Shown here piece by piece: positions 1-48,077 of a stretch of DNA of 64,000 nt. This DNA comes from Enterobacteria phage KhF1: the sequence record KT184313.1, one strand, 5' to 3'. The notes under the pieces were generated by a model. It saw only the letters and a list, made by a program, of their open reading frames with translations. It searched no databases and was not told where the DNA came from. Within the stretch, counting starts at the first letter, position 1, and each line of letters starts with the position of its first letter. The translations under genes were made by a program, and so were the position numbers.

Positions 1-528
1 ATCTGGATGAATTACATCATAGTTCTTGTCATCTTCATGTTTATCAGATGCTTGAGCTTTGATTTTCTTCATCGGCTGTTTAACAGCTACACGTTTACCA
101 TTTACTTCTTCAATCAGCATTACAGGGAATGACTGTTTAGCTGTCCACACAGCACCATCTTTATAAGCTGCTGCACGACTTACTTTCAAGATGTAGTAAG
201 TGTCTGCTTCAAAAGGTGGTTTACAACCAAACTTCTCTTCGAAGTCGTCTGCATCAACTGCTTCAGTAGTAACTTTATCCCATCCTTCTGGATTTTTCTT
301 AGACTTAGTAAACTCTTTAAACAGTTTGTTACCGTCTTCTGCCAGAATTGATACGCTGTAGTTACAATCTTTTCCTGGGAATTTCTTATCAATAGACTTA
401 CCTTTTCCCGGACGTGGTGAAGTATTCAGGTAATAAAACCAGACATCTTTCAGCAGGTAACGCAGAGTTTGACGTTCAGTACCGTTGTACTTCTCTACCG
501 GAGCTTTCATTTTAACAACTTTAGACAT
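1..528 (-). CDS. hypothetical protein, truncated at window edge (N-terminus MSKVVKMKAPVEKYNG...)
   Basis: Open minus-strand frame from ATG at 526-528 to position 1 with no stop; absent from ORF track because it lacks a stop inside the window. Confidence 0.5.
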   Translation of the reverse strand, partial: MSKVVKMKAPVEKYNGTERQTLRYLLKDVWFYYLNTSPRPGKGKSIDKKFPGKDCNYSVSILAEDGNKLFKEFTKSKKNPEGWDKVTTEAVDADDFEEKFGCKPPFEADTYYILKVSRAAAYKDGAVWTAKQSFPVMLIEEVNGKRVAVKQPMKKIKAQASDKHEDDKNYDVIHPD

Positions 529-601
529 TATTTTAAACCTCTATCTCAATTTATGAAGAGTACCAATTCTAATTTGTTGATACTCTATTGTCAAACATTA
601 A

Positions 602-751
602 TTACTGGAAGTTGTGCTTATCTTTAGAAGCTGCTTTACGTGCAGTTTTTCCAGTTCTTACACGTTTTTCTTCATAGTATTTTGCTGGTTTTCCAACAGT
701 GGCTTTTAAAGAGTCCCCAAAAACTTTTTCAAATGCTTTAGAGTGTTTCAT
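602..751 (-). CDS. small basic protein, 49 aa (MKHSKAFEKVFGDSLKATVGKPAKYYEEKRVRTGKTARKAASKDKHNFQ)
   Basis: Hand-translated minus-strand ORF; ATG overlaps stop of upstream ORF (ATGA coupling); below ORF-track size cutoff. Confidence 0.4.
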   Translation of the reverse strand: MKHSKAFEKVFGDSLKATVGKPAKYYEEKRVRTGKTARKAASKDKHNFQ

Positions 752-1041
752 GATATTCTCCGATATACTTGATATTCAAACACATTTTCTTTCATTATAA
801 ACAGCCAACCAATATTATGTTCAGGTATAGTAATAGTGACTGTGATAATACTGTGATGGAACTTTTCTTCTACCTCAACACCCCCATCACATTTCATGTA
901 GAGCATTCTATAGAACCTATCAATCTTTGTCAAACACTCTTCCTGAAATTTATTTAAACTTTTTTCTTCAAAGAAGGGTGTGAACCCCTCTCTTTTATAA
1001 CTATCACTCAGTTTCAAACGGGCAGTCATCTGCATCCTCAC
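748..1041 (-). CDS. hypothetical protein (true start probably ATG near 1029-1035)
   Basis: ORF track; GAGGA Shine-Dalgarno ahead of internal ATG; overlaps end of primase-helicase gene. Confidence 0.45.
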   Translation of the reverse strand: MRMQMTARLKLSDSYKREGFTPFFEEKSLNKFQEECLTKIDRFYRMLYMKCDGGVEVEEKFHHSIITVTITIPEHNIGWLFIMKENVFEYQVYRRIS

Positions 1042-2989
1042 TTAATACAGGTGGAATCGTTGAGCTTTGACGTTGTTCTTCAGTATAGACTTCACCAGTC
1101 TCACGGTCAAACACTTCATCCTCATAATGAGGCAAAGAGTCATCATAATGGTCTTCAGCTTCACCAATACCAAACTGTTGACGAATATTTTCTGCTGCGC
1201 CATCAATGTCAACACCACATCCAGAAGCTTTAATAAGACGTCCTGTATCTGGATTATACCAAGTATGACCAGCAATACCTGTTGACTTACCATGACGACG
1301 ACACTTAGTTAACTTGATTTTTGTCAAGTTTTTCTTAACTGGGTCTGGGTCAACCTTGTTACGCATTAACAGAATGTTATTCATAGAAATCTGAAAATAC
1401 GCACCAGAACCTTTGATATCCTCTTCAGAGATATCTCCACCTTCAGAGTTAGCTTTCTGACCACCTGCACTCTTACGAACGTGACATACGTTTACCTGCG
1501 CATACTGGTAGCGTTTGCAACGACGCAATAGCTCAGACAAAACTTCTTCTTCATCCGTATCAGAACGTGACAGGGCTAACGTGATAGGGTCAAGAATGAT
1601 AATCTTACAGTCTAAACTGTTAACAAGATAGTCAACAAACTCTAGCAGGTTATCTTGGTCAATTGCCCCTTGATGGTCAACGATATGGATACGACGGCCT
1701 TTAGATAGTTCTGCGTGTGCTCCTTTTAATTCATCCCAATCCCGTTCATCATAAGGAATCTCAGAAATCTGCTTGCTCAGGTGGATTGCACAGAGCATCT
1801 CCATCAACTCTTCATAGGTATCTTCTACAGGAATTACACCGATATTATAATCAGTTTCTTTCCAAGCTGAGTAAATCATCTCACGAGTGTAAGCTGACTT
1901 ACCTACTGAAGATGGTGCTGCAATAGTTGTAATCTCACCTAAACCGTAACCACCATAAGTCAGCCTGTTCAAATCTCCGAAAGATTCTGGGAAAGGAATC
2001 AATGGAATCTGACCACGATTCTTCATTGCCTCAAAACCATCTGCGAAGTTCTTGATACCAGCAGGGCAGTAACGGGGTGCATTGTAGATACGCTGCTTAA
2101 ATCCTTCCAGAACTGTATCTTTTTCTTTATAGAACTTTGTCCACCATTCGTTAAGGTCTTTTACACCTTCTGGATACTGGAATAAACGAACCTTCTCAAT
2201 AGGTAGGATACCAGCAGCCTCTTTAGTGGCTTTAGCACCTGCTTCATCGTTATCAAAGCACAAGTAAATCTCATCAAATGATGTAATGTACTGATAGTTA
2301 TCCTTGATAGACTTGATGTTTGCACCTGATGGAACAGATACGTGACAGTAATTCTTACGACGAGATTTGTCCTTAATCGCAAGAGAAGTCATATAGATTG
2401 CTGTCGCACATTCCATCTCACCTTCCCAGATGAATAGACGGTTACCACCTTCTGGAGCAATCCATGAACCGAACATTGCCAGTTCACCTTTAATGTCTCC
2501 AACACCACCAGAAAAGTCTTTTAACTTACCTCGTAGGTGCTCTTTTGGATGGTCTTCTGGGTAACGGTGACGAACACGATATCCAACATGCTCTAGCTTG
2601 CCATCTTCATTGCGTTTGTAAGTTGGGTAGAAATGCGCGTCAATTTCACCATCACTGTCAATGTCAACCTTGATACCCAAACGCTCAAGAACTTTTGCAG
2701 GAATCTTCCTGTCTTTCAAGTCCATCGCTTCAAGGTTTTCTTTCACATCGTCTAAATCCATTCCACGGAAAGTACGGTTTTTATTGTCTGAACCAGTAGA
2801 ATAAGTGCTCACGATTTGTCCTTTATCAAAATCCCACTCTGGGAAACCTTTGTTACAACTAAAGCAAGTCATTGAATAAGAACCATCGTCATGATGATAG
2901 ATTGAACCAGCATCTGATGAACCACAACGTGGACATGCGCAATGACCAACAAACTGACCAGCCTCTTTCAATTTACGACCTTTAGACAT
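1004..2989 (-). CDS. DNA primase/helicase (T7 gp4-like: zinc-binding domain, Toprim, DnaB-like helicase)
   Basis: N-terminal CPRCGSS...CFSCNKGF zinc ribbon; Toprim motif FDNDEAG; Walker A APSSVGKSAY; start set to ATG at 2989 with GAGGTG SD. Confidence 0.85.
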   Translation of the reverse strand: MSKGRKLKEAGQFVGHCACPRCGSSDAGSIYHHDDGSYSMTCFSCNKGFPEWDFDKGQIVSTYSTGSDNKNRTFRGMDLDDVKENLEAMDLKDRKIPAKVLERLGIKVDIDSDGEIDAHFYPTYKRNEDGKLEHVGYRVRHRYPEDHPKEHLRGKLKDFSGGVGDIKGELAMFGSWIAPEGGNRLFIWEGEMECATAIYMTSLAIKDKSRRKNYCHVSVPSGANIKSIKDNYQYITSFDEIYLCFDNDEAGAKATKEAAGILPIEKVRLFQYPEGVKDLNEWWTKFYKEKDTVLEGFKQRIYNAPRYCPAGIKNFADGFEAMKNRGQIPLIPFPESFGDLNRLTYGGYGLGEITTIAAPSSVGKSAYTREMIYSAWKETDYNIGVIPVEDTYEELMEMLCAIHLSKQISEIPYDERDWDELKGAHAELSKGRRIHIVDHQGAIDQDNLLEFVDYLVNSLDCKIIILDPITLALSRSDTDEEEVLSELLRRCKRYQYAQVNVCHVRKSAGGQKANSEGGDISEEDIKGSGAYFQISMNNILLMRNKVDPDPVKKNLTKIKLTKCRRHGKSTGIAGHTWYNPDTGRLIKASGCGVDIDGAAENIRQQFGIGEAEDHYDDSLPHYEDEVFDRETGEVYTEEQRQSSTIPPVLSEDADDCPFETE

Positions 2990-3182
2990 TAGCACCTCTT
3001 CGTTGTAGTTCTTCCTTCAATCCATTTTCAATCTTGTCCAGTTCATGAATTTCATCTGCAATCTCTTTCCTTCGTGATTCAACTCTCTTAAGACGTTCAA
3101 TCATTACCTCATTGGAAAGAGATGAGAGTTCCACTAAACGGTGGTCAATAACTTTAAAATTGTCTTTTACTCTCATCTTCAT
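2982..3182 (-). CDS. hypothetical small coiled-coil protein
   Basis: ORF track; charged, helical-looking sequence; compact operon spacing. Confidence 0.4.
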   Translation of the reverse strand: MKMRVKDNFKVIDHRLVELSSLSNEVMIERLKRVESRRKEIADEIHELDKIENGLKEELQRRGANV

Positions 3183-3995: not shown

Positions 3996-4796
3996 TTAGT
4001 GCAGTTGCTCAGCAGACTCTTTTTCAGCCATAGCTGAGATTTGCTTCACAAAATCATCACCGAAGTTAATGCGTAGTTTCTCTTCAATGATTGAAGCACC
4101 AATATTCACCAAAACATCATTGATTGCTTGCATACTAACGCCACCAGTCATTTCCTCAATGAACTCAATACTCACACCCATCATCTGTGACAGTTGGATT
4201 AGTGCAACGATATTCATCATCGTAGAGATAGCTGGAATCATCAGTGCAACTTTCACCTGAAGTGGTTCAATGTCAGCTACAGAGTCATTTTCAACAGCTT
4301 CTTCCAAAGACTCTTTAGTTTGCTGGATAATCTCTTTGATTCGTGGGTTTAATTCTTCTACGCCCCAATCAAGTTTTTCATATCGTGAAAGTTTCTCTTC
4401 CATACGCTTCTCAAGAACAGCCATAACAGCACTCGTTGATGAGATAAGCGTATCAATAATGAAATCAGTGTCCTTAGTCAGCAACAGTTCCTTATCTTCG
4501 TCTGACATCCTGATATAGTCATTCTTTTGCATTTCATAAAAAATGAACTCAGCAAGTGCATCAACACCAACCGCAATAGATGCCAGAGCAAGTGTAGTGT
4601 CTGTTAACATCATGTTGACCTGTTCTGCAAAAGCACCGTTATCAGACTTGTCTTCAGGCAAGTTATAGCTTGCAGGCATAAACTGTTCTGTGTAGTTGTT
4701 ACCACGAAGAATCATAGCCATGCTTTCTACGGCATTGATTAAAAATGCTTCGTCAATACCTTTTTCTTCAAGCATCTTTTCTACATCGGTATTCAT
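3996..4796 (-). CDS. hypothetical acidic protein
   Basis: ORF track, 266 aa, Asp/Glu-rich; rho-independent terminator downstream. Confidence 0.5.
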   Translation of the reverse strand: MNTDVEKMLEEKGIDEAFLINAVESMAMILRGNNYTEQFMPASYNLPEDKSDNGAFAEQVNMMLTDTTLALASIAVGVDALAEFIFYEMQKNDYIRMSDEDKELLLTKDTDFIIDTLISSTSAVMAVLEKRMEEKLSRYEKLDWGVEELNPRIKEIIQQTKESLEEAVENDSVADIEPLQVKVALMIPAISTMMNIVALIQLSQMMGVSIEFIEEMTGGVSMQAINDVLVNIGASIIEEKLRINFGDDFVKQISAMAEKESAEQLH

Positions 4797-5220: not shown

Positions 5221-5477
5221 GTAAGCCTCTTTTAAGTAACTATTAAGTTTTAATCTTTTATCTTAACGTATTCTATACGTTATACTTTAAAGCTTTTTAA
5301 AAGCTATTAAATAATCTTTTAAGAATTTTAAAGTATCTGTATAGTTAAACTGTTAAGTAACCTTTTAAGTAAAAACCCACTTCGCAAAGATTAACACCTT
5401 GTCAAGTGCATTGTCAACTTGCTTTTTATAATTTTTTGCAGTAATGTATGAGGTTAATGATTTTAGAGGGAGTAAAA

Positions 5478-8177
5478 ATGGAAAACGTAGATTTTAAAAA
5501 CTTACATTTAGTTGGTGATACAGAAACTGATGGTTTACTCCTTGAGTTCACTAAAGTGCACGTAATGGCCTTTGCAGACTATAAATCTGACGATGAAGAG
5601 CCACCTGTATGGGTCTTTACAGATGAACCTATTCTCGGTCACAAGTACACCAAGTACATCAAGGGTGGCTTACGTGAAGGTATTGAGTTTGCGTTAAAGG
5701 CAAAACGTCTTTGCATCCATAATGGTCTCGGTTATGACTGGTGGGTTTTCAATCACATTGCACCTGATTTATGGAACTTTGATAATCCAAAGTGTAAACC
5801 GTGGAGTAATTTCTTTCAGGATTCTCTTATCCAGTCTCGTGTTCAGTGGATGGATAGACCAACTCCAAAGGGTTATAAAGGTGCTCATGGTTTGGCTGCA
5901 TGGGGTGCTCGTGTTGGTGTTCGTAAACCAGAGATTGAACACTGGGGTGTGTGGAATGCAGAAATCTTCACTCGTGTTGTAGAAGATATCCGTATTAACG
6001 CCAAAACTAAACGGGCACTTGATAACGAGTATCTCAAGCTTAAGAAGTGTGGCATAGACACTTATGAAACTTACATGAGAGCTAAAGAGACATCTTTCTG
6101 GATGAGCCAACAAGCTATCAATGGTTGGAAAGCTGATAAAGAGCTTATGGAGTTTCATGTAAAGGAACTTGACAAGTTGACTAATGAGCTTGCTTCAGAG
6201 GTTGAACCACATCTACCTCCAACTATTAAGACCAAAGGTAAAGTCACTGGAGAAGAGTTTGCAAAAGCTTGGAATGAGTATGTTGAAGCATTTGGTCATG
6301 CAGATGGACTGAAAAGAATTACCAAGTACCCTAAGACGAAGTATCGTCAGCAGGTTCGTAATGGTGAGATGCAGACTTACGCTATCAAACCTTTTGGTAA
6401 ACCAACTACCAAGATTTTCAACATTGAGAAGCGGAACTGCTACACTCCAACTAACACAGTTACTGGAGAAGAGTACAAAGAAGGCTTTGTAGCAATGAAG
6501 GATGCTCGTGCAATTTGCAATGAGTTGAATGCAAAGATTGGTAAGAAATGCAAAGACTGGAAGCCAGTAAAAACAGTCAAAACTGTGAAGTACTATAACA
6601 GCCACGTTGTTAACCACTTTGAACTTGAGTCAAGTCGCTACACAGGATTGATTGATGCACCATATACACCAATTGAGTTTGAAGTTTCTCGTATGACTCA
6701 GGTAGCAGTTGTAAAAGACTACTTGAAATCAGTTGGTTGGATTCCAGATGACTGGAACTACAAGAAAGACTCAGACGGTCGCCCTGTCAAAGTTTGTCGT
6801 TTCAAAGACAATAAAAAGATGATTACAAAACATCCTAAGTGGCAGGAGATGGTAGAACGGTGTGGATTGAGTTATGTCGAGCATGAAGGCGTCCAGTACA
6901 TCGAGCATAACTGGTCTGTGAAGAAGTACACAGATTTGCTTGAACCTTGCTTAATCCGTACTTCACCAAAACTTACGGAATCATCTTATGATACGATTGA
7001 AGGTGAGCTTGGACAGAAGATTGCTAAGTACTATACTTTGATGCACAGACGCAGAACTATTGAGAACTCAAAGGATGATGAAAAAGGTTGGTTGAACCAG
7101 ATTCGTCCTGATGGTCGCCTTAGTGCTGGCGCAATGGTGTTTGGTACTTCAACTGGACGTATGACACAATATGGTATTGTAAACGTACCGTCTGGTGCTG
7201 CTGTCTATGGGGAACCAATGAGGGCAGTGTGGATTTGTGAGGAAGGTACTAACGTTGTCTCTGTAGATATGAACTCAGCCCAGCTAGTTCTTCTTTGTAA
7301 CTTTATGGGTGATAAAGAGTTCACCAAAGCGGTAACGCAAGGTAAAGAAGAGATTGAGTTTATTCGTCAAGAAGATGGACGCTATTACTGCAAACATTTT
7401 GATGAGTACCTCAACCCAGAGATTGATAAGTACCTTCGCTATGACTCTGAGAATGACCTGTACGTTGTCTATTCAGGGACTGATGCACATACACTGAACA
7501 GTATTTACTTTAGCTTGAATGATGAGCAGGACATCTTGACTTGTCGAGCTACTCAGGATGAGAATCTTCTTCATGAGATTAGTAAAGGTCGTAAGAAAGC
7601 TAAGAATGGTATCTATGCACTGCTGTTCGGTGCAGGGGATGAGAAGTTTGCTAAGACGATTAAAGCTGCAACTACTCAGGAAGGTGCACTGACTAAACAA
7701 ACTTACTTTATTCGTTTGCCTAAAATTAAGAAGCTACTAGATGACTTGGAAGCTGACTACAAAGCAACTAAAAAGGCACTTGAAGAGGTGTTTGGTAAGA
7801 CTGCTGCAATCTCTAAAGGGGGTTTTGTAAAGGTTGCTGGAGCTTGGTTGTGGTGTAAATCTCCACACAAACTGTTGAACTACCTTTTGATGGGTTCAGA
7901 GGCCCAGATTCAAAATGAGGCAATTAACCTTGCTTGTCGTCGCATGATTGACGAAGGGTTGATGAAGCTAAATGGGCGTAAACCAGCTATAGGTGCTCGC
8001 TTATTGTGCGCATATCACGATGAGACTAGCTGGGAATGTCCAGAGAGTATGACGGCAGAAGTAAAAGCAGTTACTGATTGGTATTACGGGCAAGCTTCTA
8101 AGAACTTAGGTCTTAAGAAAGAAACACTTGTAACTGGTACAGGTAAGGTTGGAAAGAGTTGGCTTGAGGTTCACTGA
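5478..8177 (+). CDS. DNA polymerase, family A, with 3'-5' exonuclease domain
   Basis: Exo motif VGDTETDGL; Pol A motif B RKKAKNGIYALLFGAG; motif C YHDE; start set to ATG at 5478 after GAGGGAG SD. Confidence 0.9.
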   Translation: MENVDFKNLHLVGDTETDGLLLEFTKVHVMAFADYKSDDEEPPVWVFTDEPILGHKYTKYIKGGLREGIEFALKAKRLCIHNGLGYDWWVFNHIAPDLWNFDNPKCKPWSNFFQDSLIQSRVQWMDRPTPKGYKGAHGLAAWGARVGVRKPEIEHWGVWNAEIFTRVVEDIRINAKTKRALDNEYLKLKKCGIDTYETYMRAKETSFWMSQQAINGWKADKELMEFHVKELDKLTNELASEVEPHLPPTIKTKGKVTGEEFAKAWNEYVEAFGHADGLKRITKYPKTKYRQQVRNGEMQTYAIKPFGKPTTKIFNIEKRNCYTPTNTVTGEEYKEGFVAMKDARAICNELNAKIGKKCKDWKPVKTVKTVKYYNSHVVNHFELESSRYTGLIDAPYTPIEFEVSRMTQVAVVKDYLKSVGWIPDDWNYKKDSDGRPVKVCRFKDNKKMITKHPKWQEMVERCGLSYVEHEGVQYIEHNWSVKKYTDLLEPCLIRTSPKLTESSYDTIEGELGQKIAKYYTLMHRRRTIENSKDDEKGWLNQIRPDGRLSAGAMVFGTSTGRMTQYGIVNVPSGAAVYGEPMRAVWICEEGTNVVSVDMNSAQLVLLCNFMGDKEFTKAVTQGKEEIEFIRQEDGRYYCKHFDEYLNPEIDKYLRYDSENDLYVVYSGTDAHTLNSIYFSLNDEQDILTCRATQDENLLHEISKGRKKAKNGIYALLFGAGDEKFAKTIKAATTQEGALTKQTYFIRLPKIKKLLDDLEADYKATKKALEEVFGKTAAISKGGFVKVAGAWLWCKSPHKLLNYLLMGSEAQIQNEAINLACRRMIDEGLMKLNGRKPAIGARLLCAYHDETSWECPESMTAEVKAVTDWYYGQASKNLGLKKETLVTGTGKVGKSWLEVH

Positions 8178-38221: not shown

Positions 38222-39838
38222 TCAACGTCTAAGCCCCTCATATGGGTTTCCTCTCACTAAGTCTGTGTGAGCACCCATTGATGGTGGCTTGAATAATTTA
38301 ACTTCGTTCAGACTGTTGAAAGCATCACTGGTAGCATCCACTTGGTCATCTTTAGTTTTGCCGTCACCACAAAAGCCTTCAAGTTCTTGAAAATAAGCTT
38401 CGTTCCAACTACCTCTCAAGACTTTTACAAGTCCAGCTTCAGAAGCAGCAGAAAATCCCGCAAAGCGGGTAACTTTATCTTTATTTGTTGGTTTGGCCCT
38501 TGCTCGATAACCTTTCTCGGCAAGTTTCCTGATGAGGGATGTTGCGTAGGATTTACCAGCAGCGCCTGGGTCTTGAGGGATAAAAATACCAGTTCGCTTA
38601 CCGTCACTTTCAGCAGTCAAATTAATTTGTGTTTCGACTCCAGAGGGTCTATCTCTAAATCTTACTACATCAATGATATAATAGCAACCGTCTTTTTTAG
38701 ATTTACCCATCTTAACACCTGCTGTCCAGTCTGGATTAGGGTTAACCTCAGATGGTAAAGTTGCTGCTAAGTCCCATGCTCTAACATCAAACACATCTTC
38801 TGGGAGTGAATCAACAATCTCACACCATTGTCTTTGCCAATAGTTTGAACCTTCTGCACGAGCCTTCCAGTTACCGAAACGAAGTCTTGCAACGTTTACA
38901 GGAGTGTTGTTTTCAAGCTTACCGCGATACTTTGGTTCTAAGAAGTCAAGAATTGGATTATCATCAATTGTACCAGAGATGAAGGTGTATGTTTGAGGAA
39001 TCTCAAGAGGGAACATTTCAAGAATCTTGTCTCTCTCCCAATCAGAAACCATCACACCATCATTCATTACATACCAACGAATACGACCACACTTTTCAGG
39101 GTCTGGGTAACCTTCTTCATCTAAGAATGGTTCTACCCAATCGTAAATAAAGTGGTCTCTATCTGGGTTCATGGAAATCTTCATGTATGAATCACCTTCA
39201 GCACCAGAACGTAGACGGGTTTGTAGGTATGAAATCTGTGAAGCAGAGAAGTGTGTACCTTCGTCAAAGTAAATAGCTGAGTATTCAATCCCCTGATGAC
39301 CTTCAGCGTGCTTTTCAAGTTCTAGGTAGGTAAACTTGATAGTTGCCCCAGAAGGGAATGTGATAGTCATTTTCTGCTCGTGAGGAATCCCACCAAACTT
39401 ACCAAATAGTTTCTTTGCAGCAGGCCATAAACCACCTTGTAACTGTGTTGTATTTCGACGGAAATATACAGCATTATAGTTAGGGTCTTCAATAAATCTT
39501 AAAGAGTCCATTAACAATGCAGCAGTTTTACCAGCACCAGCAGCACCACCATAAAGAACCAAGTCAGCATTAGTATTTAAAAAGACCTCTTGAGAACCCG
39601 GCTGAGGGGCTACATAGTTCTTATCAGTCATCAATTTGAAGATAAGTCTAACTTGGTCTGGTGTGTATCTTAATAAAGTCAGAATTTGAGTTGGAAGGAA
39701 TTTAGAGGGGTCTTTACCGAATGATTTGATAATTTCTTTTACTTCATCAGAAAGCCCCAACTCTCCAGCTAGGACTTTCCTAACATCTTCCACTCGCTTC
39801 TGCTTAACAGCATTTAAGTCCATTAAGCACCTCCGCAA
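38222..39838 (-). CDS. terminase large subunit
   Basis: Walker A VLYGGAAGAGKTAALL; ATPase then nuclease-like C-terminal half. Confidence 0.85.
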   Translation of the reverse strand: MRRCLMDLNAVKQKRVEDVRKVLAGELGLSDEVKEIIKSFGKDPSKFLPTQILTLLRYTPDQVRLIFKLMTDKNYVAPQPGSQEVFLNTNADLVLYGGAAGAGKTAALLMDSLRFIEDPNYNAVYFRRNTTQLQGGLWPAAKKLFGKFGGIPHEQKMTITFPSGATIKFTYLELEKHAEGHQGIEYSAIYFDEGTHFSASQISYLQTRLRSGAEGDSYMKISMNPDRDHFIYDWVEPFLDEEGYPDPEKCGRIRWYVMNDGVMVSDWERDKILEMFPLEIPQTYTFISGTIDDNPILDFLEPKYRGKLENNTPVNVARLRFGNWKARAEGSNYWQRQWCEIVDSLPEDVFDVRAWDLAATLPSEVNPNPDWTAGVKMGKSKKDGCYYIIDVVRFRDRPSGVETQINLTAESDGKRTGIFIPQDPGAAGKSYATSLIRKLAEKGYRARAKPTNKDKVTRFAGFSAASEAGLVKVLRGSWNEAYFQELEGFCGDGKTKDDQVDATSDAFNSLNEVKLFKPPSMGAHTDLVRGNPYEGLRR

Positions 39839-39844
39839 ATAGAA

Positions 39845-40045
39845 TTATTCAGAGTCTGTAGCAGTCTCTTCTTTCTTAACTTCGAACTTTGCATCAACAA
39901 CATCAAGAAGTGCATCCATAGATGCTTCTTTAATATCAATACCTGTTGCTACAGATAATCTGTCTGCAATTGCCATGATAGTGTTCTGCATAAATTCTAG
40001 CTTCTTATTAGCTTCATAAAGTTCTTTATAAACGGTCTCGCTCAT
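39845..40045 (-). CDS. hypothetical small protein upstream of terminase
   Basis: ORF track, 66 aa. Confidence 0.4.
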   Translation of the reverse strand: MSETVYKELYEANKKLEFMQNTIMAIADRLSVATGIDIKEASMDALLDVVDAKFEVKKEETATDSE

Positions 40046-40079
40046 TATGTTTTCTCCAAATAGTTAACCATGTTTCCCC

Positions 40080-40106
40080 TTAAAAAAGACGGTACAGAGA
40101 CCGTCA
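40080..40106 (-). terminator. rho-independent terminator downstream of tRNA cluster
   Basis: GACGGT-ctctgt-ACCGTC hairpin followed by TTTTTT on minus strand. Confidence 0.6.
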
Positions 40107-40267
40107 AGGAGAAACCACAATGTACGTCAGAGACATACTGTATAAGCCTTCTTATAAAGTATAACTCTGTAAAAAAGCCCTGTCTAAAAATACTCTTCGG
40201 TAGCGAAAGGAAGAATACTTATAGCAGGGCATTATTATTATTTTAATTGAGAGAGAGTAAAATAACT

Positions 40268-40343
40268 TGGAGAATCCGAAGGGACTCGAACCCTTATAAA
40301 CCTGTTTTGCAGACAGGCACATAGCCATTTCTGTCACGGATTC
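40268..40343 (-). tRNA. tRNA-Cys (anticodon GCA)
   Basis: Acceptor GAATCCG/CGGATTC, T-arm AAGGG-TTCGAGT-CCCTT, anticodon loop CTGCAAA, CCA encoded. Confidence 0.7.
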
Positions 40344-40347
40344 AAAT

Positions 40348-40440
40348 TGGAGGAAGATACCAGACTTGAACTGGTACACCGATTTCTCAGCTACTGGCAG
40401 TTTAGCAAACTGCTCCCTTACCTTTTAGGGTTAATCTTCC
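40348..40440 (-). tRNA. tRNA-Ser (anticodon GCT), long variable arm
   Basis: T-arm ACCAG-TTCAAGT-CTGGT, anticodon loop TTGCTAA, about 90 nt. Confidence 0.6.
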
Positions 40441-40441
40441 A

Positions 40442-41176
40442 TTATTTCTGTAATGCGTTCTTCATTTCTGGTGTTGCAATAGTGTCAATCACACCAGTTT
40501 TACAAGCATCATCAAACCAGTCTGGTAAGATACCTGCTAAGAACCCATTGATATTCGTTTTAAGGTACTCTGCAATAAGGGCAGCTTCTTCTTCAATCAT
40601 CTGCACAACTTCATCTGCATAAGCTGTAATCTTTGAGATACCTTCATTAATCTTACTGACAGCTTGGTTAGCTAAATCAGAAACAGTATCAAGACCCTTA
40701 TCAATAGCATCTTGTAAGTCACTTAACACACCATTAACACTATCTAGTGTACTGTTCATCATGTCAATAGCTTTTTGACCATACTCTGTAGCAACACCCA
40801 TAATACCACTGAATGGTGTACAACCAACTTGTTCTCCTGCTGCACCCATAACATTGGAGTATCCCTTTGCTACCTGCATACGTGATGAAAACTCATCAAT
40901 AGACTTTTGACCGTAGTCTGTTAGGGTCTTAGTAGTTGCTGTAGTGCTTGTAAGGCTTGTTGTAAAGCTGTTTAGAAGGACTGTTGTAAGTCCAGCAGCA
41001 ACAAGTTTCTCCTTCATTGTAGGGTCTGTTACAGAGCTAATAGAGCTTACAAGTGATGTAGAAGCAGCTACGGTTCCACCGAGAACTGCTGCACCAGTAA
41101 TAAGTGGGTTAGAGAACCCTTTACCGGTTTTTAAGAGATTAAAAATCTCCTTACCTTGTTCTGTCATCTCTTTCAT
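40442..41176 (-). CDS. hypothetical Ala/Thr/Ser-rich protein inside tRNA cluster
   Basis: ORF track; start moved to internal ATG at 41176 because the annotated start would overlap tRNA-Phe. Confidence 0.45.
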   Translation of the reverse strand: MKEMTEQGKEIFNLLKTGKGFSNPLITGAAVLGGTVAASTSLVSSISSVTDPTMKEKLVAAGLTTVLLNSFTTSLTSTTATTKTLTDYGQKSIDEFSSRMQVAKGYSNVMGAAGEQVGCTPFSGIMGVATEYGQKAIDMMNSTLDSVNGVLSDLQDAIDKGLDTVSDLANQAVSKINEGISKITAYADEVVQMIEEEAALIAEYLKTNINGFLAGILPDWFDDACKTGVIDTIATPEMKNALQK

Positions 41177-41192
41177 TAAGCACCTTTGAAAT

Positions 41193-41269
41193 TGGTAGTC
41201 CAGTGGGATTTGAACCCTCTTCTCATGTTTTTCAGACACGCGCTTTAACCATATAAGCTACTTGGACTA
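41193..41269 (-). tRNA. tRNA-Phe (anticodon GAA)
   Basis: Acceptor pairing, GGGTTCAAATCCC T-arm, anticodon loop CTGAAAA. Confidence 0.6.
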
Positions 41270-41274
41270 TAAAT

Positions 41275-41350
41275 TGGGGTGACCTACGGGATTTGAACCC
41301 GTATAGACCATGTTCACAGCATGGGTCATTACCATTTATGATAAGGCCAC
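41275..41350 (-). tRNA. tRNA-His (anticodon GTG)
   Basis: Acceptor GTGGCCT/AGGTCAC, anticodon stem CCATG/CATGG, loop CTGTGAA. Confidence 0.7.
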
Positions 41351-41381
41351 ATTTAAGGACTCTCGTAAGAATCCTTAGAAG

Positions 41382-41457
41382 TGGCAGCGGCATAAGGATT
41401 TGAACCTTAATAGGACAGCTTCAGAGACTGTTGCATTGCCAGTTATGCTATACCGCT
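41382..41457 (-). tRNA. tRNA-Gln (anticodon CTG)
   Basis: Acceptor AGCGGTA/TGCCGCT, T-loop TTCAAAT, anticodon loop CTCTGAA. Confidence 0.6.
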
Positions 41458-41462
41458 AAATT

Positions 41463-41534
41463 TGGTACTCCATATCGGATTCGAACCGATACATAACACA
41501 GATTTTAAGTCTGGCCTCTCTGCCAATTGGAGTA
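41463..41534 (-). tRNA. tRNA, short and atypical, isotype undetermined (anticodon possibly TAA)
   Basis: Acceptor ACTCCAA/TGGAGT, T-arm ATCGG-TTCGAAT-CCGAT; anticodon arm does not parse cleanly. Confidence 0.45.
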
Positions 41535-41543
41535 ATGGAGCAT

Positions 41544-41618
41544 TGGCGGGGGATGTTGGAATTGAACCAACTTCTTCGATTTCAAAGACCGAGGTTTTAA
41601 CCTTGTAAACTAATCCCC
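41544..41618 (-). tRNA. tRNA-Gln (anticodon TTG), tentative
   Basis: T-arm GTTGG-TTCAATT-CCAAC, anticodon loop CTTTGAA; acceptor pairing imperfect. Confidence 0.5.
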
Positions 41619-41627
41619 TTTAAATCT

Positions 41628-42185
41628 TTACTTTCTCAGTGGATGAATAAAGAATGCCAACATAACTCTTTCCCTTGAGAATGCTCTTTCTTCTGGGACA
41701 ACACTTTTTAGTTTCCATCCAATATAAATTCTCCAGTAAAACTGTTTACCAAAGACTTTAATTGATGGGATAAAGGCGAATAATCCCCAAGCATTACTGT
41801 TCCACATTAGGAGATAACCAGTCTGATTATCTTCAGGGTCAGAACTTACGTTGATATTACCTTTCCACTTAGTAACATCTTTTACATCTCTTCCTAATAC
41901 ATGGTAAGAGAAGTTATAAGCTTTGTTTCTCCAGAGCCATCCGACTCTTTGCATGTAGACGCCTAGTTTACCAATCCATCTAATATTAGCCCATCTTTTA
42001 ACGTGACCTTCATCACCATCAATTGGGTTGTCATATGTCTCCATCCATCTGAACCCGAAAGGTAAGTGTCCTTTCTTCTCACTGTAGAATGGAACTACAA
42101 AAGGTGCTAAGATAACTGCTAAGATTGCTGCAAATGGCTCTAACAAAGCTAAGAAAATCCATGAAACATATTTTAAGTATCTCAT
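41628..42185 (-). CDS. integral membrane protein
   Basis: N-terminal hydrophobic helices WIFLALLEPFAAILAVILAPFVVPF; Trp-rich. Confidence 0.5.
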   Translation of the reverse strand: MRYLKYVSWIFLALLEPFAAILAVILAPFVVPFYSEKKGHLPFGFRWMETYDNPIDGDEGHVKRWANIRWIGKLGVYMQRVGWLWRNKAYNFSYHVLGRDVKDVTKWKGNINVSSDPEDNQTGYLLMWNSNAWGLFAFIPSIKVFGKQFYWRIYIGWKLKSVVPEERAFSRERVMLAFFIHPLRK

Positions 42186-42424
42186 TGTCTAACCCTCGTA
42201 AGGAGGTAAGCATTATTATTTGTTTCTGAGCTTTCTGGTAACATTGTCTCAAAATTGACGCTTTTAAGTTGTCTTCCACCAAAGCAATGACCAATAAATC
42301 TTTCTACTTTTATTGGGTCGCATTCCCATCCGACTTTCAAGAAAATGTGGGTATCTATAGTGGGAACCCTTACAAACTCAATACTATTGGGATTTTCATG
42401 TTCAACGACGATTAATGTTTGCAT
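42182..42424 (-). CDS. hypothetical protein
   Basis: ORF track; ATGA overlap with downstream membrane-protein gene. Confidence 0.45.
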   Translation of the reverse strand: MQTLIVVEHENPNSIEFVRVPTIDTHIFLKVGWECDPIKVERFIGHCFGGRQLKSVNFETMLPESSETNNNAYLLTRVRQ

Positions 42425-42441
42425 AAATTCCTCTTGCTTAT

Positions 42442-42517
42442 CTGGCGCAGGATAAGGGATTCGAACCCCTATTAACAGCTTCGTAGACTGTTGCTCTATC
42501 CATTTGAACTAATCCTG
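42442..42517 (-). tRNA. tRNA-Arg (anticodon ACG)
   Basis: Acceptor GCAGGAT/ATCCTGC, T-arm GGGGTTCGAATCCC, anticodon loop CTACGAA. Confidence 0.7.
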
Positions 42518-42522
42518 CAAAA

Positions 42523-42600
42523 TTGGTGTTCCAAGACGGATTCGAACCGTCACTAGTACAAGGTTTGAGCTTGCATCCTCTGCCAATTGGGATACTGGAA
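42523..42600 (-). tRNA. tRNA with anticodon CAA (Leu-type anticodon on a short-variable-arm body)
   Basis: Acceptor GTTCCAG/TTGGAAC, T-arm GACGG-TTCGAAT-CCGTC, anticodon loop CTCAAAC. Confidence 0.5.
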
Positions 42601-42601
42601 C

Positions 42602-42677
42602 ATGGTACTCACTAAAGGACTTGAACCTTTTTCTTCATCTTGTAAGGGTGATGTTTTACCATATAAACTAAGCGAGT
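42602..42677 (-). tRNA. tRNA-Val (anticodon TAC)
   Basis: Acceptor TACTCGC/GTGAGTA, T-loop TTCAAGT, anticodon loop CTTACAA. Confidence 0.55.
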
Positions 42678-42681
42678 ATGA

Positions 42682-42768
42682 AAGAGGTCTGGAGTTGTGC
42701 CGCTAACTCAACTCCGTGGAATTTGTTACGGTCTTCAGTTGACTCAAAGCGGTCTTTCACTTGACCTC
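42682..42768 (-). ncRNA. tRNA-sized structured element, not a canonical tRNA
   Basis: 7-bp terminal pairing AGAGGTC/GACCTCT encloses a 7-bp hairpin GGAGTTG/CAACTCC; no TTCGA T-loop. Confidence 0.35.
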
Positions 42769-42772
42769 TGAA

Positions 42773-42848
42773 TTGGTGCTCCCACAAGGATTCGAACCCT
42801 GATAAGTTGCTTACAAGGCAACCGTAATAGCCAATTATACGATAGGAG
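42773..42848 (-). tRNA. tRNA-Thr (anticodon TGT)
   Basis: Acceptor GCTCCTA/TGGGAGC, anticodon stem GTTGC/GCAAC, loop CTTGTAA. Confidence 0.7.
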
Positions 42849-42855
42849 CATTAAT

Positions 42856-42931
42856 TTGGAGCATCCAGAGGGAATCGAACCCTCAACCTCAGTTTGGAAG
42901 ACTGTAATTTTCCCGTTTAAACTATGGATGC
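42856..42931 (-). tRNA. tRNA-Gly (anticodon TCC)
   Basis: Acceptor GCATCCA/TGGATGC, T-loop TTCGATT, anticodon loop CTTCCAA. Confidence 0.65.
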
Positions 42932-42936
42932 ACTAA

Positions 42937-43012
42937 TTGGTGGAGTCACTGAGAATTGAACTCAGTTCCCAAGTTTGCAAAACTCGAATTTTAACCATAT
43001 AAACTATGACCC
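42937..43012 (-). tRNA. tRNA-Ala (anticodon TGC)
   Basis: Acceptor GGGGTCA/TGACTCC (G3-T70 wobble), anticodon loop TTTGCAA. Confidence 0.65.
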
Positions 43013-43018
43013 CAATGT

Positions 43019-43095
43019 TTGGTACAGGTGGAGGGAATTGAACCCATCGTCTTACTGATTAAGAGTCAGCCGCATAACCATTTTGCTACACCTGC
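43019..43095 (-). tRNA. tRNA-Lys (anticodon CTT)
   Basis: Acceptor GCAGGTG/CACCTGT, anticodon stem GCTGA/TCAGT, loop CTCTTAA. Confidence 0.55.
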
Positions 43096-43101
43096 ATTAA
43101 T

Positions 43102-43180
43102 TTGGTGGGAGACAAGGGATTCGAACCCTCAAACACCAACTTCTAAGGATGGTAGGTTTACCAATTACCGTCAATCTCCC
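43102..43180 (-). tRNA. tRNA with anticodon TAG (Leu-type anticodon on a short-variable-arm body), tentative
   Basis: Acceptor GGGAGAT/GTCTCCC, T-arm GAGGG-TTCGAAT-CCCTT, anticodon loop CTTAGAA. Confidence 0.45.
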
Positions 43181-43438
43181 ATTAAATCTTTTTAGAGAAC
43201 TTCTAAGAACCTAAGCAACAAGGTTCCACAACAAGCTGTAATAACCTTAGAAGCCCTCTAAAAAGACCTAAAAAGGTCTTTGCATAGTCTTGTTTAATCC
43301 GGTGACTAGAACCTTTGGAGAGCTTGATATTATCTCTTCTCCGTGACACCTACTAGGTGCTTTACTGTGCGTGTACGACAATACACGAGGGATACCAAAG
43401 CAACATCCGAATGAAGCTTGGCTTTAAAATCTTATTAG

Positions 43439-43526
43439 GCGGTAAGTAAAGGAGTCGAACCCTCACCGTATCTCTACAGTGGCAACAGTTTTCAAGACTG
43501 TTTGGCTGCCATTAGCCGCTACCTAC
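43439..43526 (-). tRNA. tRNA-Ser (anticodon TGA), long variable arm
   Basis: Acceptor GGTAGGT/ACTTACC, anticodon stem ACAGT/ACTGT, loop CTTGAAA, about 88 nt. Confidence 0.6.
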
Positions 43527-43539
43527 CCCTAATAAGACT

Positions 43540-43622
43540 TTGGCATGGGACGGAGGAGTTGAACCCCTTTGAAACGGTTTTGGAGGCCGTTGCTCATGCC
43601 TTAGAGTCTTAACATCGTCCCA
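43540..43622 (-). tRNA. tRNA, atypical; possibly tRNA-Trp (anticodon CCA) with extended D region
   Basis: Acceptor GTGGGAC/GTCCCAT, T-loop TTCAACT, candidate anticodon loop CTCCAAA; about 8 extra nt in D region. Confidence 0.45.
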
Positions 43623-43774
43623 CACTATAATTCGAAGCTTACCCTATTATCTCAACACTGTAAAGCCCCTTCTCAGATTATTTACATGTTCTGGAAAACA
43701 TGAGATACAGACCACCTCCCTACAGGAAGACCCGCTTAGGTCGTATAAGTAATCTGCTAACTATTTGGCACACC

Positions 43775-43842
43775 CTACAGGATTCGAACCTGTAACTAAC
43801 GATTTAGAAGACCGTTGCTCTATCCAATTGAACTAAGGGTGC
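43775..43842 (-). tRNA. tRNA-Arg (anticodon TCT)
   Basis: Acceptor GCACCCT/AGGGTGT, T-arm ACAGG-TTCGAAT-CCTGT, anticodon loop CTTCTAA. Confidence 0.65.
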
Positions 43843-44088
43843 ATTAATCTTTAAAGACTCTCTTAGAAAGCCCTTAAAGATGCCCACCTTATTAATCATA
43901 CCGTGGGCGAGTACGCCAAATTCTTTGATGAGGGATTGGAAGACCTCACTGGTGTTTAGCCTATCAAGCTACTGCCAGAAAAACATTGTCGTTTGCATTT
44001 ATTTTAAATTTGCAAAATAGACGCTACGCAACGAAAACTAAGGTTACTATAAAGTGGTCACATCTCAATGTCAACAACTTTATTGAAA

Positions 44089-44164
44089 TTGGTACTGGTA
44101 GGTGGAATCGAACCACCGATGTTCCCTTATCAGGGGAGTGTTATAACCTTCTTAACTATACCAG
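44089..44164 (-). tRNA. tRNA-Ile (anticodon GAT)
   Basis: Acceptor GCTGGTA/TACCAGT, T-arm GGTGG-TTCGATT-CCACC, anticodon loop CTGATAA. Confidence 0.7.
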
Positions 44165-44165
44165 C

Positions 44166-44243
44166 TTGGAGGTTCAGATGGGAATCGAACCCACATTCAT
44201 AGGGCTTATGAGACCCTTGCATTACCTTATCTGCGACTGAACC
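44166..44243 (-). tRNA. tRNA-Met (anticodon CAT), copy 1
   Basis: Acceptor GGTTCAG/CTGAACC, anticodon stem AGGGT/GCCCT, loop CTCATAA. Confidence 0.65.
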
Positions 44244-44246
44244 ATT

Positions 44247-44322
44247 TTGGTAGAAGTGGAGGGATTCGAACCCATCGCCTGTCAGATTAAAAGTCTGCCG
44301 CATCACCATTCTGCTACACTTC
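44247..44322 (-). tRNA. tRNA-Lys (anticodon TTT)
   Basis: Acceptor GGAAGTG/CACTTCT, T-loop TTCGAAT, anticodon loop CTTTTAA. Confidence 0.6.
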
Positions 44323-44325
44323 CAT

Positions 44326-44469
44326 TAAATTATCTTTGTAGATAAGCTACCCAGACTTGCTTAAGGTCTGTAGCGATGTGCCTTGTTGGGTTTAAATCTA
44401 GAATTTACCCTTTCACCCTTTGTGGTCGCATACTCACAGGTAAGCTTAATAACTTATCTACAAAGATAA
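44326..44469. repeat. 19-bp perfect inverted repeat pair (AATTATCTTTGTAGATAAG) enclosing about 106 nt
   Basis: Arms at about 44326-44344 and 44451-44469 are exact reverse complements. Confidence 0.6.
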
Positions 44470-44470
44470 T

Positions 44471-44602
44471 TACCAGACCGTTGTTTATCATCTTAAGTGC
44501 TACCATTACACCAACTCGACATCTGCCGAGTGAAGGAATCGAACCTTCGCCTTTTCTTTACCGAGAAATAGATTGTTTAAGTTTTGCTGTAAACGGTCTT
44601 CT
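44471..44602 (-). ncRNA. tRNA-like domain in permuted (Y RNA-like / YrlA-like) arrangement inside a long closing stem
   Basis: On minus strand: T-arm GAAGG-TTCGATT-CCTTC, acceptor-like 7-bp helix ACTCGGC/GTCGAGT capped by a 4-nt loop, D-arm GTGT-AATGGTA-GCAC, CTTAA/TTAAG helix, outer stem AGACCGTT/AACGGTCT. Confidence 0.45.
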
Positions 44603-44615
44603 GTAAATTTGTTGA

Positions 44616-44691
44616 GCCAGACCAAGTTTTAAATTTTTCAAAATTAAATTGGCTTGAAATTTTCATACGTTCTTGCTGTATTTGGTCTTCT
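44616..44691 (-). repeat. spacer hairpin element, family member 2 (CCAGACCAA ... TTGGTCTTCTG)
   Basis: Same conserved arms and TTGCTGTA block as 44471..44602 but AT-rich interior. Confidence 0.5.
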
Positions 44692-44752
44692 GCTCCTTTA
44701 AAGGATACTCGTAAGAACCCTTTAAGGGAGGGGCTAAATAGCCCTCTCAAAA

Positions 44753-44829
44753 TTGGCGGCTACGATGAGACTTGAACTCACATCATCTCCCGTGACAGGG
44801 GAGTATTTTCTCCAGTTAAACTACATAGC
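44753..44829 (-). tRNA. tRNA-Asp (anticodon GTC)
   Basis: Acceptor GGCTATG/CGTAGCC, T-loop TTCAAGT, anticodon stem CTCCC/GGGAG, loop CTGTCAC. Confidence 0.7.
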
Positions 44830-44834
44830 CTTTA

Positions 44835-44922
44835 TTGGTGTGCCGTGTAGGAGTCGAACCTACCGAGTCTCAATGACAAGGGATTTACAGTCCCCACCGC
44901 TACCATCTACGGGATAACGACA
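44835..44922 (-). tRNA. tRNA-Tyr (anticodon GTA), long variable arm
   Basis: Acceptor GTGTCGT/ACGGCAC, T-arm GTAGG-TTCGACT-CCTAC, anticodon loop CTGTAAA. Confidence 0.65.
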
Positions 44923-44930
44923 CATTTAAT

Positions 44931-45007
44931 TTGGCGGTTAGTCAGGGATTCGAACCCTGTGCCATTCGCTTAACAGGCGACCGCACATACCTTATGTGCT
45001 TCCTAAC
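44931..45007 (-). tRNA. tRNA-Asn (anticodon GTT)
   Basis: T-arm CAGGG-TTCGAAT-CCCTG, anticodon loop CTGTTAA. Confidence 0.65.
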
Positions 45008-45020
45008 CATGTTTAGTATT

Positions 45021-45085
45021 ACCAGACCGTATATTTCAATTTTTTCCGCTAAAAATTTAATAAATATTGCTGTAAACGGTCTTCT
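45021..45085 (-). repeat. spacer hairpin element, family member 3 (CCAGACCGT ... AACGGTCTTCTG)
   Basis: Conserved arms and TTGCTGTAAACGGTCTTCTGTAAA block. Confidence 0.5.
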
Positions 45086-45091
45086 GTAAAT

Positions 45092-45167
45092 TTGGAGGCG
45101 GGTGCAGGAGTCGAACCTGCCGATACCATGCTAATGAGACATGTGAGACGCCCTTTCTCTATACCCG
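45092..45167 (-). tRNA. tRNA with anticodon CAT, copy 2 (initiator, elongator Met or Ile2 undetermined)
   Basis: T-arm GCAGG-TTCGACT-CCTGC, anticodon stem CATGT/GCATG, loop CTCATTA. Confidence 0.6.
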
Positions 45168-45179
45168 CAATTCTTAATG

Positions 45180-45251
45180 ACCAGACCAAATATCTTCTTT
45201 GTCCGATTAACTTTCAGATGAGTAGATTAAGTTTGCTGTAATTGGTCTTCT
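45180..45251 (-). repeat. spacer hairpin element, family member 4 (CCAGACCAA ... TTGGTCTTCTG)
   Basis: Conserved arms and TTGCTGTAATTGGTCTTCTG block. Confidence 0.5.
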
Positions 45252-45258
45252 GTCAAAA

Positions 45259-45336
45259 CTGGCGTTCCAGAAGGGATTTGAACCCTCAAATATCCACTTT
45301 GAAAGAGTGGTGACTTTACCATTTTGTCTACTGGAA
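45259..45336 (-). tRNA. tRNA-Glu (anticodon TTC)
   Basis: Acceptor GTTCCAG/CTGGAAC, anticodon stem CCACT/AGTGG, loop CTTTCAA. Confidence 0.7.
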
Positions 45337-45343
45337 CATTAAT

Positions 45344-45423
45344 TTGGTCTCCGTTGAAGGATTTGAACCCTCGACCCCTTGCTCCCAAAGCAAGTGCTGC
45401 TAAACCAAACTGAGCTAAACGGA
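45344..45423 (-). tRNA. tRNA-Pro (anticodon TGG)
   Basis: Acceptor CTCCGTT/AACGGAG, anticodon stem CTTGC/GCAAG, loop TTTGGGA. Confidence 0.7.
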
Positions 45424-45542
45424 GATAAACTTTTCAAACTCTATGTAACCACTTTAACATTATTTTTTAGTGATTGTCAAGAACTTTTTTAAAATATTTT
45501 TCAGTATCTTAGAAAAGCTCTCATTTCGTTTCTATGTAGAAC

Positions 45543-47458: not shown

Positions 47459-48077
47459 TGGTATGCCTCTTATAAGACCTCTTAAAAGGCTTTTAAGATA
47501 AAAGATAGATATCCAGAAAGATATCTGTTTAAATAGCCTTTTTAGAGGAACCTTTTAAGTTATCTTCTAAGTATTTATAAGCCTACACCTTGTCAAGTAC
47601 TTTGTCAACAACTTTTTTAACTTGCAATAGTTCTTGACTTGTTGTATGGATTACTGTACCATCTTACTTAAAGCTGTAGGTCTGCCTTGTTCTACAAAGG
47701 AGACTTAATGAGAAAATCAAATAACCCGAAGAAAGGTAAAAATACCAATCACTGTAAGGAATCAAAAAGGGTAGAGTTACTCTACTATTCATCCTCTGAA
47801 ATTGGTCTGTACCTGTTCTTTCAAAATTACAGAAGACAAGAGGATTATCTATGTGTAGTTCCCAATTAGAAATCGCAGATATTATAGATTTATATAAAAC
47901 TGCAAAGAGTCATGGCTATATAACCTCAATTGGAAAGAATAGTCACTACGATGCTTTGACTGGAATGTATTTCAGGGCAATGGCTCAATCTAGTGAACAA
48001 CACTTAATGGTTTCTTCCAGTGAGTTTACTTCGTTTCTCTATTGCAGCAAAATCATAAATCGCAGGAGAACTGAAAA

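Follow-up and report, generated by a model that had tools for sequence, protein, structure and literature searches.

A divergent T7-type single-stranded DNA-binding protein as the likely product of a gene at the left edge of a phage KhF1 sequence

The T7-type SSBs, proteins that bind single-stranded DNA, are a group defined by a variant of the OB-fold, by a long capping helix that follows β2 and by a tail that is acidic and unstructured (PMC5686142). Tyr158 of T7 gp2.5, equivalent to Trp150 of the Enc34 protein, is a conserved base-stacking residue that is experimentally needed for the binding of single-stranded DNA (ssDNA) (PMC5686142), and the tail of gp2.5 reportedly makes contact with the gp5 polymerase and the helicase and is needed if the gp6 exonuclease is to be stimulated (PMC4124056). 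For phage Felix O1, the polymerase and primase/helicase were described as T7-like and the replication enzymes were given as ligase, polymerase and primase/helicase, with no SSB named (PMC3185647). Here we examine the left end of a 64,000-nucleotide stretch of Enterobacteria phage KhF1 (KT184313.1; the window), where a minus-strand gene for a 285-residue protein runs off the edge. We found that this protein is homologous to gp2.5, and we consider it very likely to be the phage's SSB, a divergent member of the T7-type group (gp2.5/Enc34 ORF6/DUF2815). The gene and its putative expression signals lie at the following positions of the window.

1..528, minus strand: first 176 codons of the gene for the 285-residue protein (full gene KT184314.1 47139..47996; ANZ51976.1; homologue of Felix O1 ORF104)
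538..541, minus strand: Shine-Dalgarno sequence GAGG, 9 nt before the ATG of the gene; read from the sequence, with a presumed ribosome-binding role
566..594, minus strand: predicted sigma-70-type promoter TTGACA-N17-TAGAAT, 11/12 consensus positions, in the 73-bp gap between a 49-residue open reading frame (ORF) and the gene

The original prediction held that two genes were missing from the ORF track at this edge, namely an uninterrupted minus-strand frame from the ATG at 526-528 to the end of the window and a 49-residue basic ORF at 602..751 whose ATG overlaps the upstream stop. Careful re-translation of the first frame (window 528→1), where an internal stop would have counted against the claim, gave 176 codons with zero stops. 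The second frame starts with ATG, encodes a protein of isoelectric point (pI) 10.2 and appears once the ORF minimum is lowered to 30 residues; through the sequence ATGA, its start codon (751-749) shares bases with the TGA (750-748) that ends the 93/97-residue ORF upstream. The coordinates and the overlap therefore stand, and the strand, which had been left unstated, must be given as minus because the plus-strand translation of 602..751 has a stop. Both frames are missing from the track because the ORF list leaves out edge-truncated and short ORFs: the tool drops any ORF that leaves the source and by default asks for at least 60 residues. Extending the sequence leftward in the identical record KT184314.1 (phage KhF2) completes the edge gene at 285 residues. 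Both frames are genuine protein-coding genes, present as coding sequences (CDSs) in the KhF2 record (ANZ51976.1 and ANZ51977.1, each labelled "hypothetical protein") and as ORF104 and ORF103 in Felix O1.

Positions 1-3000 of the window are 100% identical to KhF2, a Felix O1-like myovirus of the genus Felixounavirus, and 95-99% identical to ~170 further Felix O1-like phages. Of the 88,309 bp in the KhF2 record, ~40.8 kb are left from position 47,469, where the window starts, which puts the end of the record near window position 40841; the 64-kb window must wrap around the KhF2 record or derive from a differently permuted copy. At window positions 39500-42500, the six matches listed are other Felixounaviruses at ~97% identity.

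Both genes are widely conserved. In tblastn searches the 285-residue protein matched 301 phage records, the 49-residue protein 262 and the 97-residue form of the neighboring ORF 257. The phages taken for comparison were KhF2, Sf16 (a Mooglevirus), Wc4-1 (a Pectobacterium phage) and an Erwinia Kolesnikvirus; in these genes their DNA is 57-82% identical. With synonymous sites often saturated or near saturation between genera, the ratio of nonsynonymous to synonymous substitution rates (dN/dS) was 0.04-0.43 for the 285-residue gene, 0.06-0.15 for the 49-residue ORF and 0.45-0.58 for the 93-residue ORF. The first two genes are under purifying selection, and neither is a chance ORF. The alternative that one or both frames are non-coding, and that the ORF track was right to omit them, could point to the shortness of the 49-residue ORF and to its zero Pfam or NCBIfam matches. 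It has to contend, however, with two proteins that are conserved across genera whose DNA is 57-72% identical, with dN/dS well under 1, with PHROG matches for both frames (E 1e-104 and 3e-35), with hundreds of records that annotate both, and with the transcript of ORF104 detected in Felix O1. We find this alternative hardly credible as a whole, and for the 285-residue gene it is already refuted.

The 285-residue protein belongs to phrog_3877 (E 1e-104), which PHROGs lists under "unknown function". An alignment with close homologues in the Ounavirinae comprised 13 sequences, in which 12 of the 14 proteins from a word-indexed search joined the KhF2 protein, and Pfam found only noise in them (e.g. 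TFIIA and MC7), leaving both SBB_T7 and Enc34_ssDNA-bd unmatched. A profile of the globular part reached further: against 1.84 billion representative proteins it gave 55 matches at E<=1e-3, mostly of 200-245 residues, that have in common PPFEA, IGNGS·G·V, LVEY and a tail that is acidic and closes with Trp or Phe, several of these distant relatives ending in …DDIPF, …DDLPF or …DDPF. All 58 members of the resulting extended alignment match phrog_3877, and 35 of the 58 also match phrog_112, 'Gp2.5-like ssDNA binding protein' (best E 9.9e-18). In Pfam, the SBB_T7 model picks out nine of them (best E 1e-4) and the Enc34_ssDNA-bd model six (best E 2e-5). Bridging proteins match phrog_3877 and phrog_112 over overlapping residues (P0142, 9e-21 and 6e-12; P0145, 2e-16 and 4e-13; P0146, 5e-14 and 1e-17).

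Comparison by hhalign of the extended family with a 29-sequence gp2.5 family alignment gave 96.6% probability and an E value of 6e-10. The register was unchanged from that of weaker comparisons made with the Ounavirinae alone, which were used just as a check of register consistency and which consistently pair IAVGNGSFGSVILSTHFYTF…LVPYTGG with PIIGGGSKLKVKYSLVPYKW…LATFGGG of gp2.5. When the extended family was run against the PDB with hmmsearch, 1JE5 (T7 gp2.5) came first at E 2e-7 and the DUF2815 structure 4JG2 second. The top PDB match of the Ounavirinae-only profile, SIR3 (E 0.2), is spurious. Tyr194 aligns with T7 Tyr158 in all four alignments and is invariant in the Ounavirinae, and its column is aromatic (Tyr, Trp or Phe) in 38 of the 58 family members. 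An aromatic residue falls within the final six positions of 51 of 52 full-length relatives, whose last 30 residues carry a median net charge of -12.

With the 58-sequence alignment, AlphaFold2 produced a model with a mean predicted local distance difference test score (pLDDT) of 84.9. In the core, up to residue 220, the means of 10-residue blocks are 83-98 and nearly all at least 93, and pLDDT falls below 50 over most of the tail, as expected of a disordered segment. The top nine Foldseek matches of the model in the PDB are all T7-type SSBs (4KLK, 1JE5, 5ODJ/5ODK/5ODL and 4JG2) at probability 0.97-1.00, with the tenth at 0.06, and the named matches in a viral structure library are helix-destabilizing, ssDNA-binding or DUF2815 proteins. 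Set beside the features of the T7-type group, the predicted OB-fold superposes best on gp2.5 and Enc34 ORF6, the acidic tail is long and unstructured with a near-terminal aromatic residue (the variation being that Phe stands fifth from the end), homology to gp2.5/DUF2815 is detectable, and an aromatic residue occupies the Tyr158/Trp150 position. The stretch around the capping position is modelled as a strand (55-62), a short helix (66-71), a second strand (87-92) and a second helix (93-100), so that a helix does stand at the expected place but is short and split. The sequence and Foldseek comparisons show that the 285-residue protein is homologous to gp2.5 and has its fold. The KhF2 protein falls below the curated thresholds of both PF21265 (SBB_T7) and PF10991 (Enc34_ssDNA-bd), and it is best described as lying outside both Pfam families as drawn, on a divergent branch of its own, phrog_3877, within the T7-type SSB superfamily.

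The protein divides into a basic core (residues 1-222, pI 8.78), a Gly-rich linker that comes next, and a tail (residues 223-285) whose 63 residues include 32 Asp/Glu and 2 Lys/Arg (pI 4.05) and terminate in …DDEEDEDFDTED; the core and tail of T7 gp2.5 have identical pI values, 8.78 and 4.05. The part of the gene left of the window edge encodes the final OB-fold strands together with this tail. Phe281, five residues from the end, is invariant among the homologues in the 13-sequence alignment, and the tail motif ELDEDELAMLGL is conserved within the Ounavirinae, where D232, L234, L237 and G238 are invariant. One could read this tail, unusually long at ~60 residues with 32 Asp or Glu and bearing a conserved Ounavirinae motif that gp2.5 lacks, as a DNA mimic or decoy carried on an OB-fold scaffold, the protein then being an anti-restriction, anti-defence or host-takeover factor and not an SSB. 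We think this very improbable: the basic core retains the aromatic residue that corresponds to Tyr158 of gp2.5, an acidic tail is normal for SSBs (PMC5686142), and homology, fold and replication-module context all favor an SSB.

The gene lies among those for T7-like replication enzymes, and its upstream neighbor in the window is one of them.

1004..2989, minus strand: T7 gp4-like DNA primase/helicase (Pfam Toprim_2 and DnaB_C; phrog_239 at E 2e-184; so annotated in KhF2)

The 285-residue gene is flanked by this gp4-like primase/helicase and a gp6-like 5'-3' exonuclease and is close to a family A DNA polymerase (window 5448..8177). The Felix O1 reference has the same arrangement, with ORF103 and ORF104 bounded by the primase/helicase ORF101 (gene "4A") on one side and the exodeoxyribonuclease ORF105 (gene "6") on the other, and the distant relative P0139 has as neighbors a 5'-3' exonuclease, a primase/helicase with Toprim and a polymerase of family A. 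The primase/helicase at 1004..2989 is presumed to be the partner of the SSB. Within the 64-kb window no other ORF of at least 80 residues has an acidic tail, and tblastn of T7 gp2.5 and E. coli SSB against the window revealed no rival SSB at the BLAST level.

By analogy with the T7 system, we infer that the protein binds ssDNA and contacts these partners. Its basic OB-fold core would coat ssDNA at the fork by base stacking on Tyr194 and through basic residues, and its acidic, Phe-bearing tail would dock on the T7-like polymerase, the primase/helicase and the 5'-3' exonuclease, recruiting or stimulating them. The tail would also compete with ssDNA for the binding cleft of the core, folding back onto the cleft when DNA is absent. 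The same neighborhood could suit a protein of gp2.5 fold that serves mainly in single-strand annealing and recombination, or in recombination-dependent replication together with the adjacent exonuclease, with the host SSB coating the fork. The gene is directly upstream of the exonuclease, recalling exonuclease/annealase pairs, the description of phrog_112 reads 'ssDNA binding protein and ssDNA annealing protein', and T7 gp6 is stimulated by gp2.5 by way of its tail (PMC4124056). However, the T7 protein performs both jobs, so the difference is one of emphasis and not of kind; moreover, the T7-like polymerase and primase/helicase would need a matching acidic-tail partner, and the search of the window gave no other SSB candidate. 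A role mainly in annealing thus seems unlikely to us, and assignment as the phage's T7-type SSB is the reading we prefer.

Several observations weigh against this assignment. The KhF2 protein alone finds nothing in Pfam or NCBIfam at E<=10 and has no phmmer match among PDB sequences, and the Ounavirinae-only alignment compared with gp2.5 by hhalign is not significant (E 9e-4 to 0.07, probability <=23%). Sequence-level alignment with gp2.5 is restricted to the C-terminal half of the fold. An AlphaFold2 model from the 13-sequence alignment reached a pLDDT of 45 and was discarded, the good model relies on an alignment that includes gp2.5-like sequences, and its TM-scores against T7-type SSB structures are modest (TMt 0.39-0.56). 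At the capping-helix position there are two short helices (66-71 and 93-100) in place of the one long helix of gp2.5, alpha-A. Relative to gp2.5, the protein also has an extra N-terminal extension of ~22 residues with three short strands, and a Lys-rich insertion of ~28-40 residues (~137-176) between the strands equivalent to gp2.5 ~131 and ~141. Its conserved Phe is followed by D/E-T-E/D, whereas Phe is the last residue of gp2.5. Finally, the scan for a rival SSB covered 64 kb of an 88-kb genome.

The distance from described SSBs is considerable. Compared with T7 gp2.5 (1JE5; PF21265, SBB_T7), the protein is ~15% identical, has no direct Pfam match, is longer (285 versus 232 residues) and has a longer tail with the additional conserved motif, and its phage is a myovirus that uses the host RNA polymerase, unlike T7. 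With its lineage-specific additions, the insertion and the second tail motif, the Ounavirinae SSB might be more than a plain copy of gp2.5. Compared with Enc34 ORF6/DUF2815 (5ODJ/5ODK/5ODL, 4KLK and 4JG2; PF10991), it is 11-15% identical and ~100 residues larger; PF10991 matches six of the distant relatives but not the protein itself, and the replication neighbors differ from those of Enc34. With the E. coli-type SSB (PF00436) and T4 gp32 it has a common logic, an OB-fold and then an acidic C-terminal tip, and several distant relatives end in ...DD(I/L/V/T)PF, resembling the bacterial SSB tip DDDIPF.

The expression signals appear to make the 285-residue gene a self-contained unit of strong sigma-70 promoter, Shine-Dalgarno sequence, gene and intrinsic terminator, an arrangement that would fit a protein needed in stoichiometric amounts. 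The promoter at 566..594 is presumably active. Equivalent promoter-like sites stand just before the gene in Sf16 (TTGACA-N17-TAAGAT), in Wc4-1 (TTGACA-N17-TAACAT, with TG) and in the Erwinia phage vEam_PM_6 (ATGACA-N17-TAAAAT). Just past the stop codon, at KT184314.1 47098-47118, folding gives a terminator built of a 12-bp stem plus U-run (-18.2 kcal/mol, z -3.1), which is annotated in the KhF2 record and corresponds to the terminator t104 that the Felix O1 paper lists. A simple terminator scan missed the KhF2 site, which folding and Felix O1 t104 confirmed. The order of promoter, gene and terminator recurs in the other genera, with a promoter in all three relatives and, in Wc4-1 and vEam_PM_6, a terminator that the scan picked up behind the gene. 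By reverse transcription PCR in Felix O1, ORF104 shares its expression class with the polymerase ORF96 and the primase/helicase ORF101.

Two small genes separate the 285-residue gene from the primase/helicase, and a promoter-like site lies upstream of them.

602..751, minus strand: gene for the 49-residue basic protein (ANZ51977.1; homologue of Felix O1 ORF103; phrog_4424 at E 3e-35; pI 10.2)
748..1029, minus strand: 93-residue ORF (97 residues from the GTG at 1041; homologue of Felix O1 ORF102; phrog_4982 at E 7.5e-50)
1082..1110, minus strand: promoter-like TTGACC-N17-TATACT, 10/12 consensus positions, within the 3' end of the primase/helicase gene and upstream of the 93- and 49-residue pair

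The 49-residue gene is real. Its minus-strand translation is MKHSKAFEKVFGDSLKATVGKPAKYYEEKRVRTGKTARKAASKDKHNFQ, in which a core, SKAF··VFG·S··AT·GK·A····KR·RTGKTAR, is kept in three genera. A profile search assembled its family as 35 protein clusters, whose lengths are 30-50 residues and, apart from a single cluster, 44-50, and returned homologues of the Ounavirinae type only, with uninformative names. Against Pfam, NCBIfam and PHROGs, the 49-residue and 93/97-residue proteins matched only families of unknown function. A low-confidence guess is that the 49-residue product might serve the replication module as a small accessory that binds nucleic acid or protein. More specifically, it could form a small regulatory module with the SSB, binding the acidic tail of the SSB or modulating loading of the primase/helicase. 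This idea is speculative and we hold it to be improbable, and a weak hint against it is that the Erwinia Kolesnikvirus keeps the SSB without the 49-residue gene, its 286-residue gene directly following the primase/helicase. If true, it would be a partnership not known for T7-type SSBs.

The 93-residue ORF, which the original prediction did not flag, sits between the primase/helicase (ORF101) and ORF103. It is unannotated in the KhF2 record but annotated in the relatives warpig, Sf16, Felix O1 and JohannRWettstein, and no other gene treated here is really absent from the KhF2 annotation as deposited. The ATGA overlap with the 49-residue gene suggests translational coupling of the two. The promoter-like site at 1110..1082 is 'P102' of the Felix O1 genome paper (PMC3185647). 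A second promoter-like sequence, TTGACA-N17-TAGAAT (905..933, minus strand; 11/12 positions), lies inside the 93-residue ORF, 96 nt past its start, and Sf16 has a weaker TTGACT-N17-TAAAGT at an equal offset (2322-2350 of its locus, L004). The site at 905..933 could be an internal promoter for the 49-residue gene, or could be due to chance.

Other features of the surrounding sequence are also of interest for annotation. A 266-residue acidic protein encoded between a deoxynucleoside monophosphate kinase and the DNA polymerase (3996..4796, minus strand) is annotated 'minor tail protein' (ORF98), a label that looks doubtful because the gene lies inside the replication and nucleotide-metabolism module. 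Beside the exonuclease, the homing endonucleases differ among phages: a GIY-YIG enzyme in warpig (1081-1578 of locus L002) and HNH enzymes in Sf16 (4671-5102 of L004) and Felix O1 (3421-3780 of L009). KhF2 has an unannotated gap of ~500 bp next to its exonuclease (2060-2567 of L001). The exonuclease-adjacent site looks like a hotspot for mobile endonucleases. ARAGORN finds a cluster of 26 transfer RNA genes at 40268..45424 (minus strand), typical of Felix O1-like phages.

The 285-residue protein is labelled hypothetical in almost every source, across ~300 Felix O1-like genomes including the curated BASEL genome (bas63_0055). One UniRef entry, from phage SapYZU01, names the homologue "Single-stranded DNA-binding protein", and the SSB idea for this family is not wholly absent from databases. 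Searches of the literature on an SSB or gp2.5 in Felix O1, Felixounavirus or Ounavirinae found no paper assigning this gene. Two records, OK272472.1 (JLBYU28) and MH426725.1 (SunLIRen), mislabel the homologue 'putative DNA primase/helicase', and in Shigella phage SFPB (OQ031072.1) the homologue is split into CDSs of 135 and 150 residues, a break that points to a frameshift or sequencing error. Felixounavirus DNA at ~97% identity also occurs in records assigned to unrelated hosts, GU169904.1 'Staphylococcus phage SA1' (61066-64066) and 'Campylobacter' records, which are probably mixed or contaminated assemblies.

This is an ordinary genome-scan finding, of genes missed for technical reasons, and the gain is a useful annotation. 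Among the phages used in typing, biocontrol and therapy of Salmonella and E. coli, Felix O1 and its relatives are classics, with hundreds of sequenced genomes. SSBs of this class are reportedly sensed by some bacterial defence systems, such as retron Eco8. The SSB assignment would give PHROG 3877 a function and widen the known sequence range of T7-type SSBs. In these phages it would complete the predicted replisome of polymerase, primase/helicase, SSB, exonuclease and ligase.

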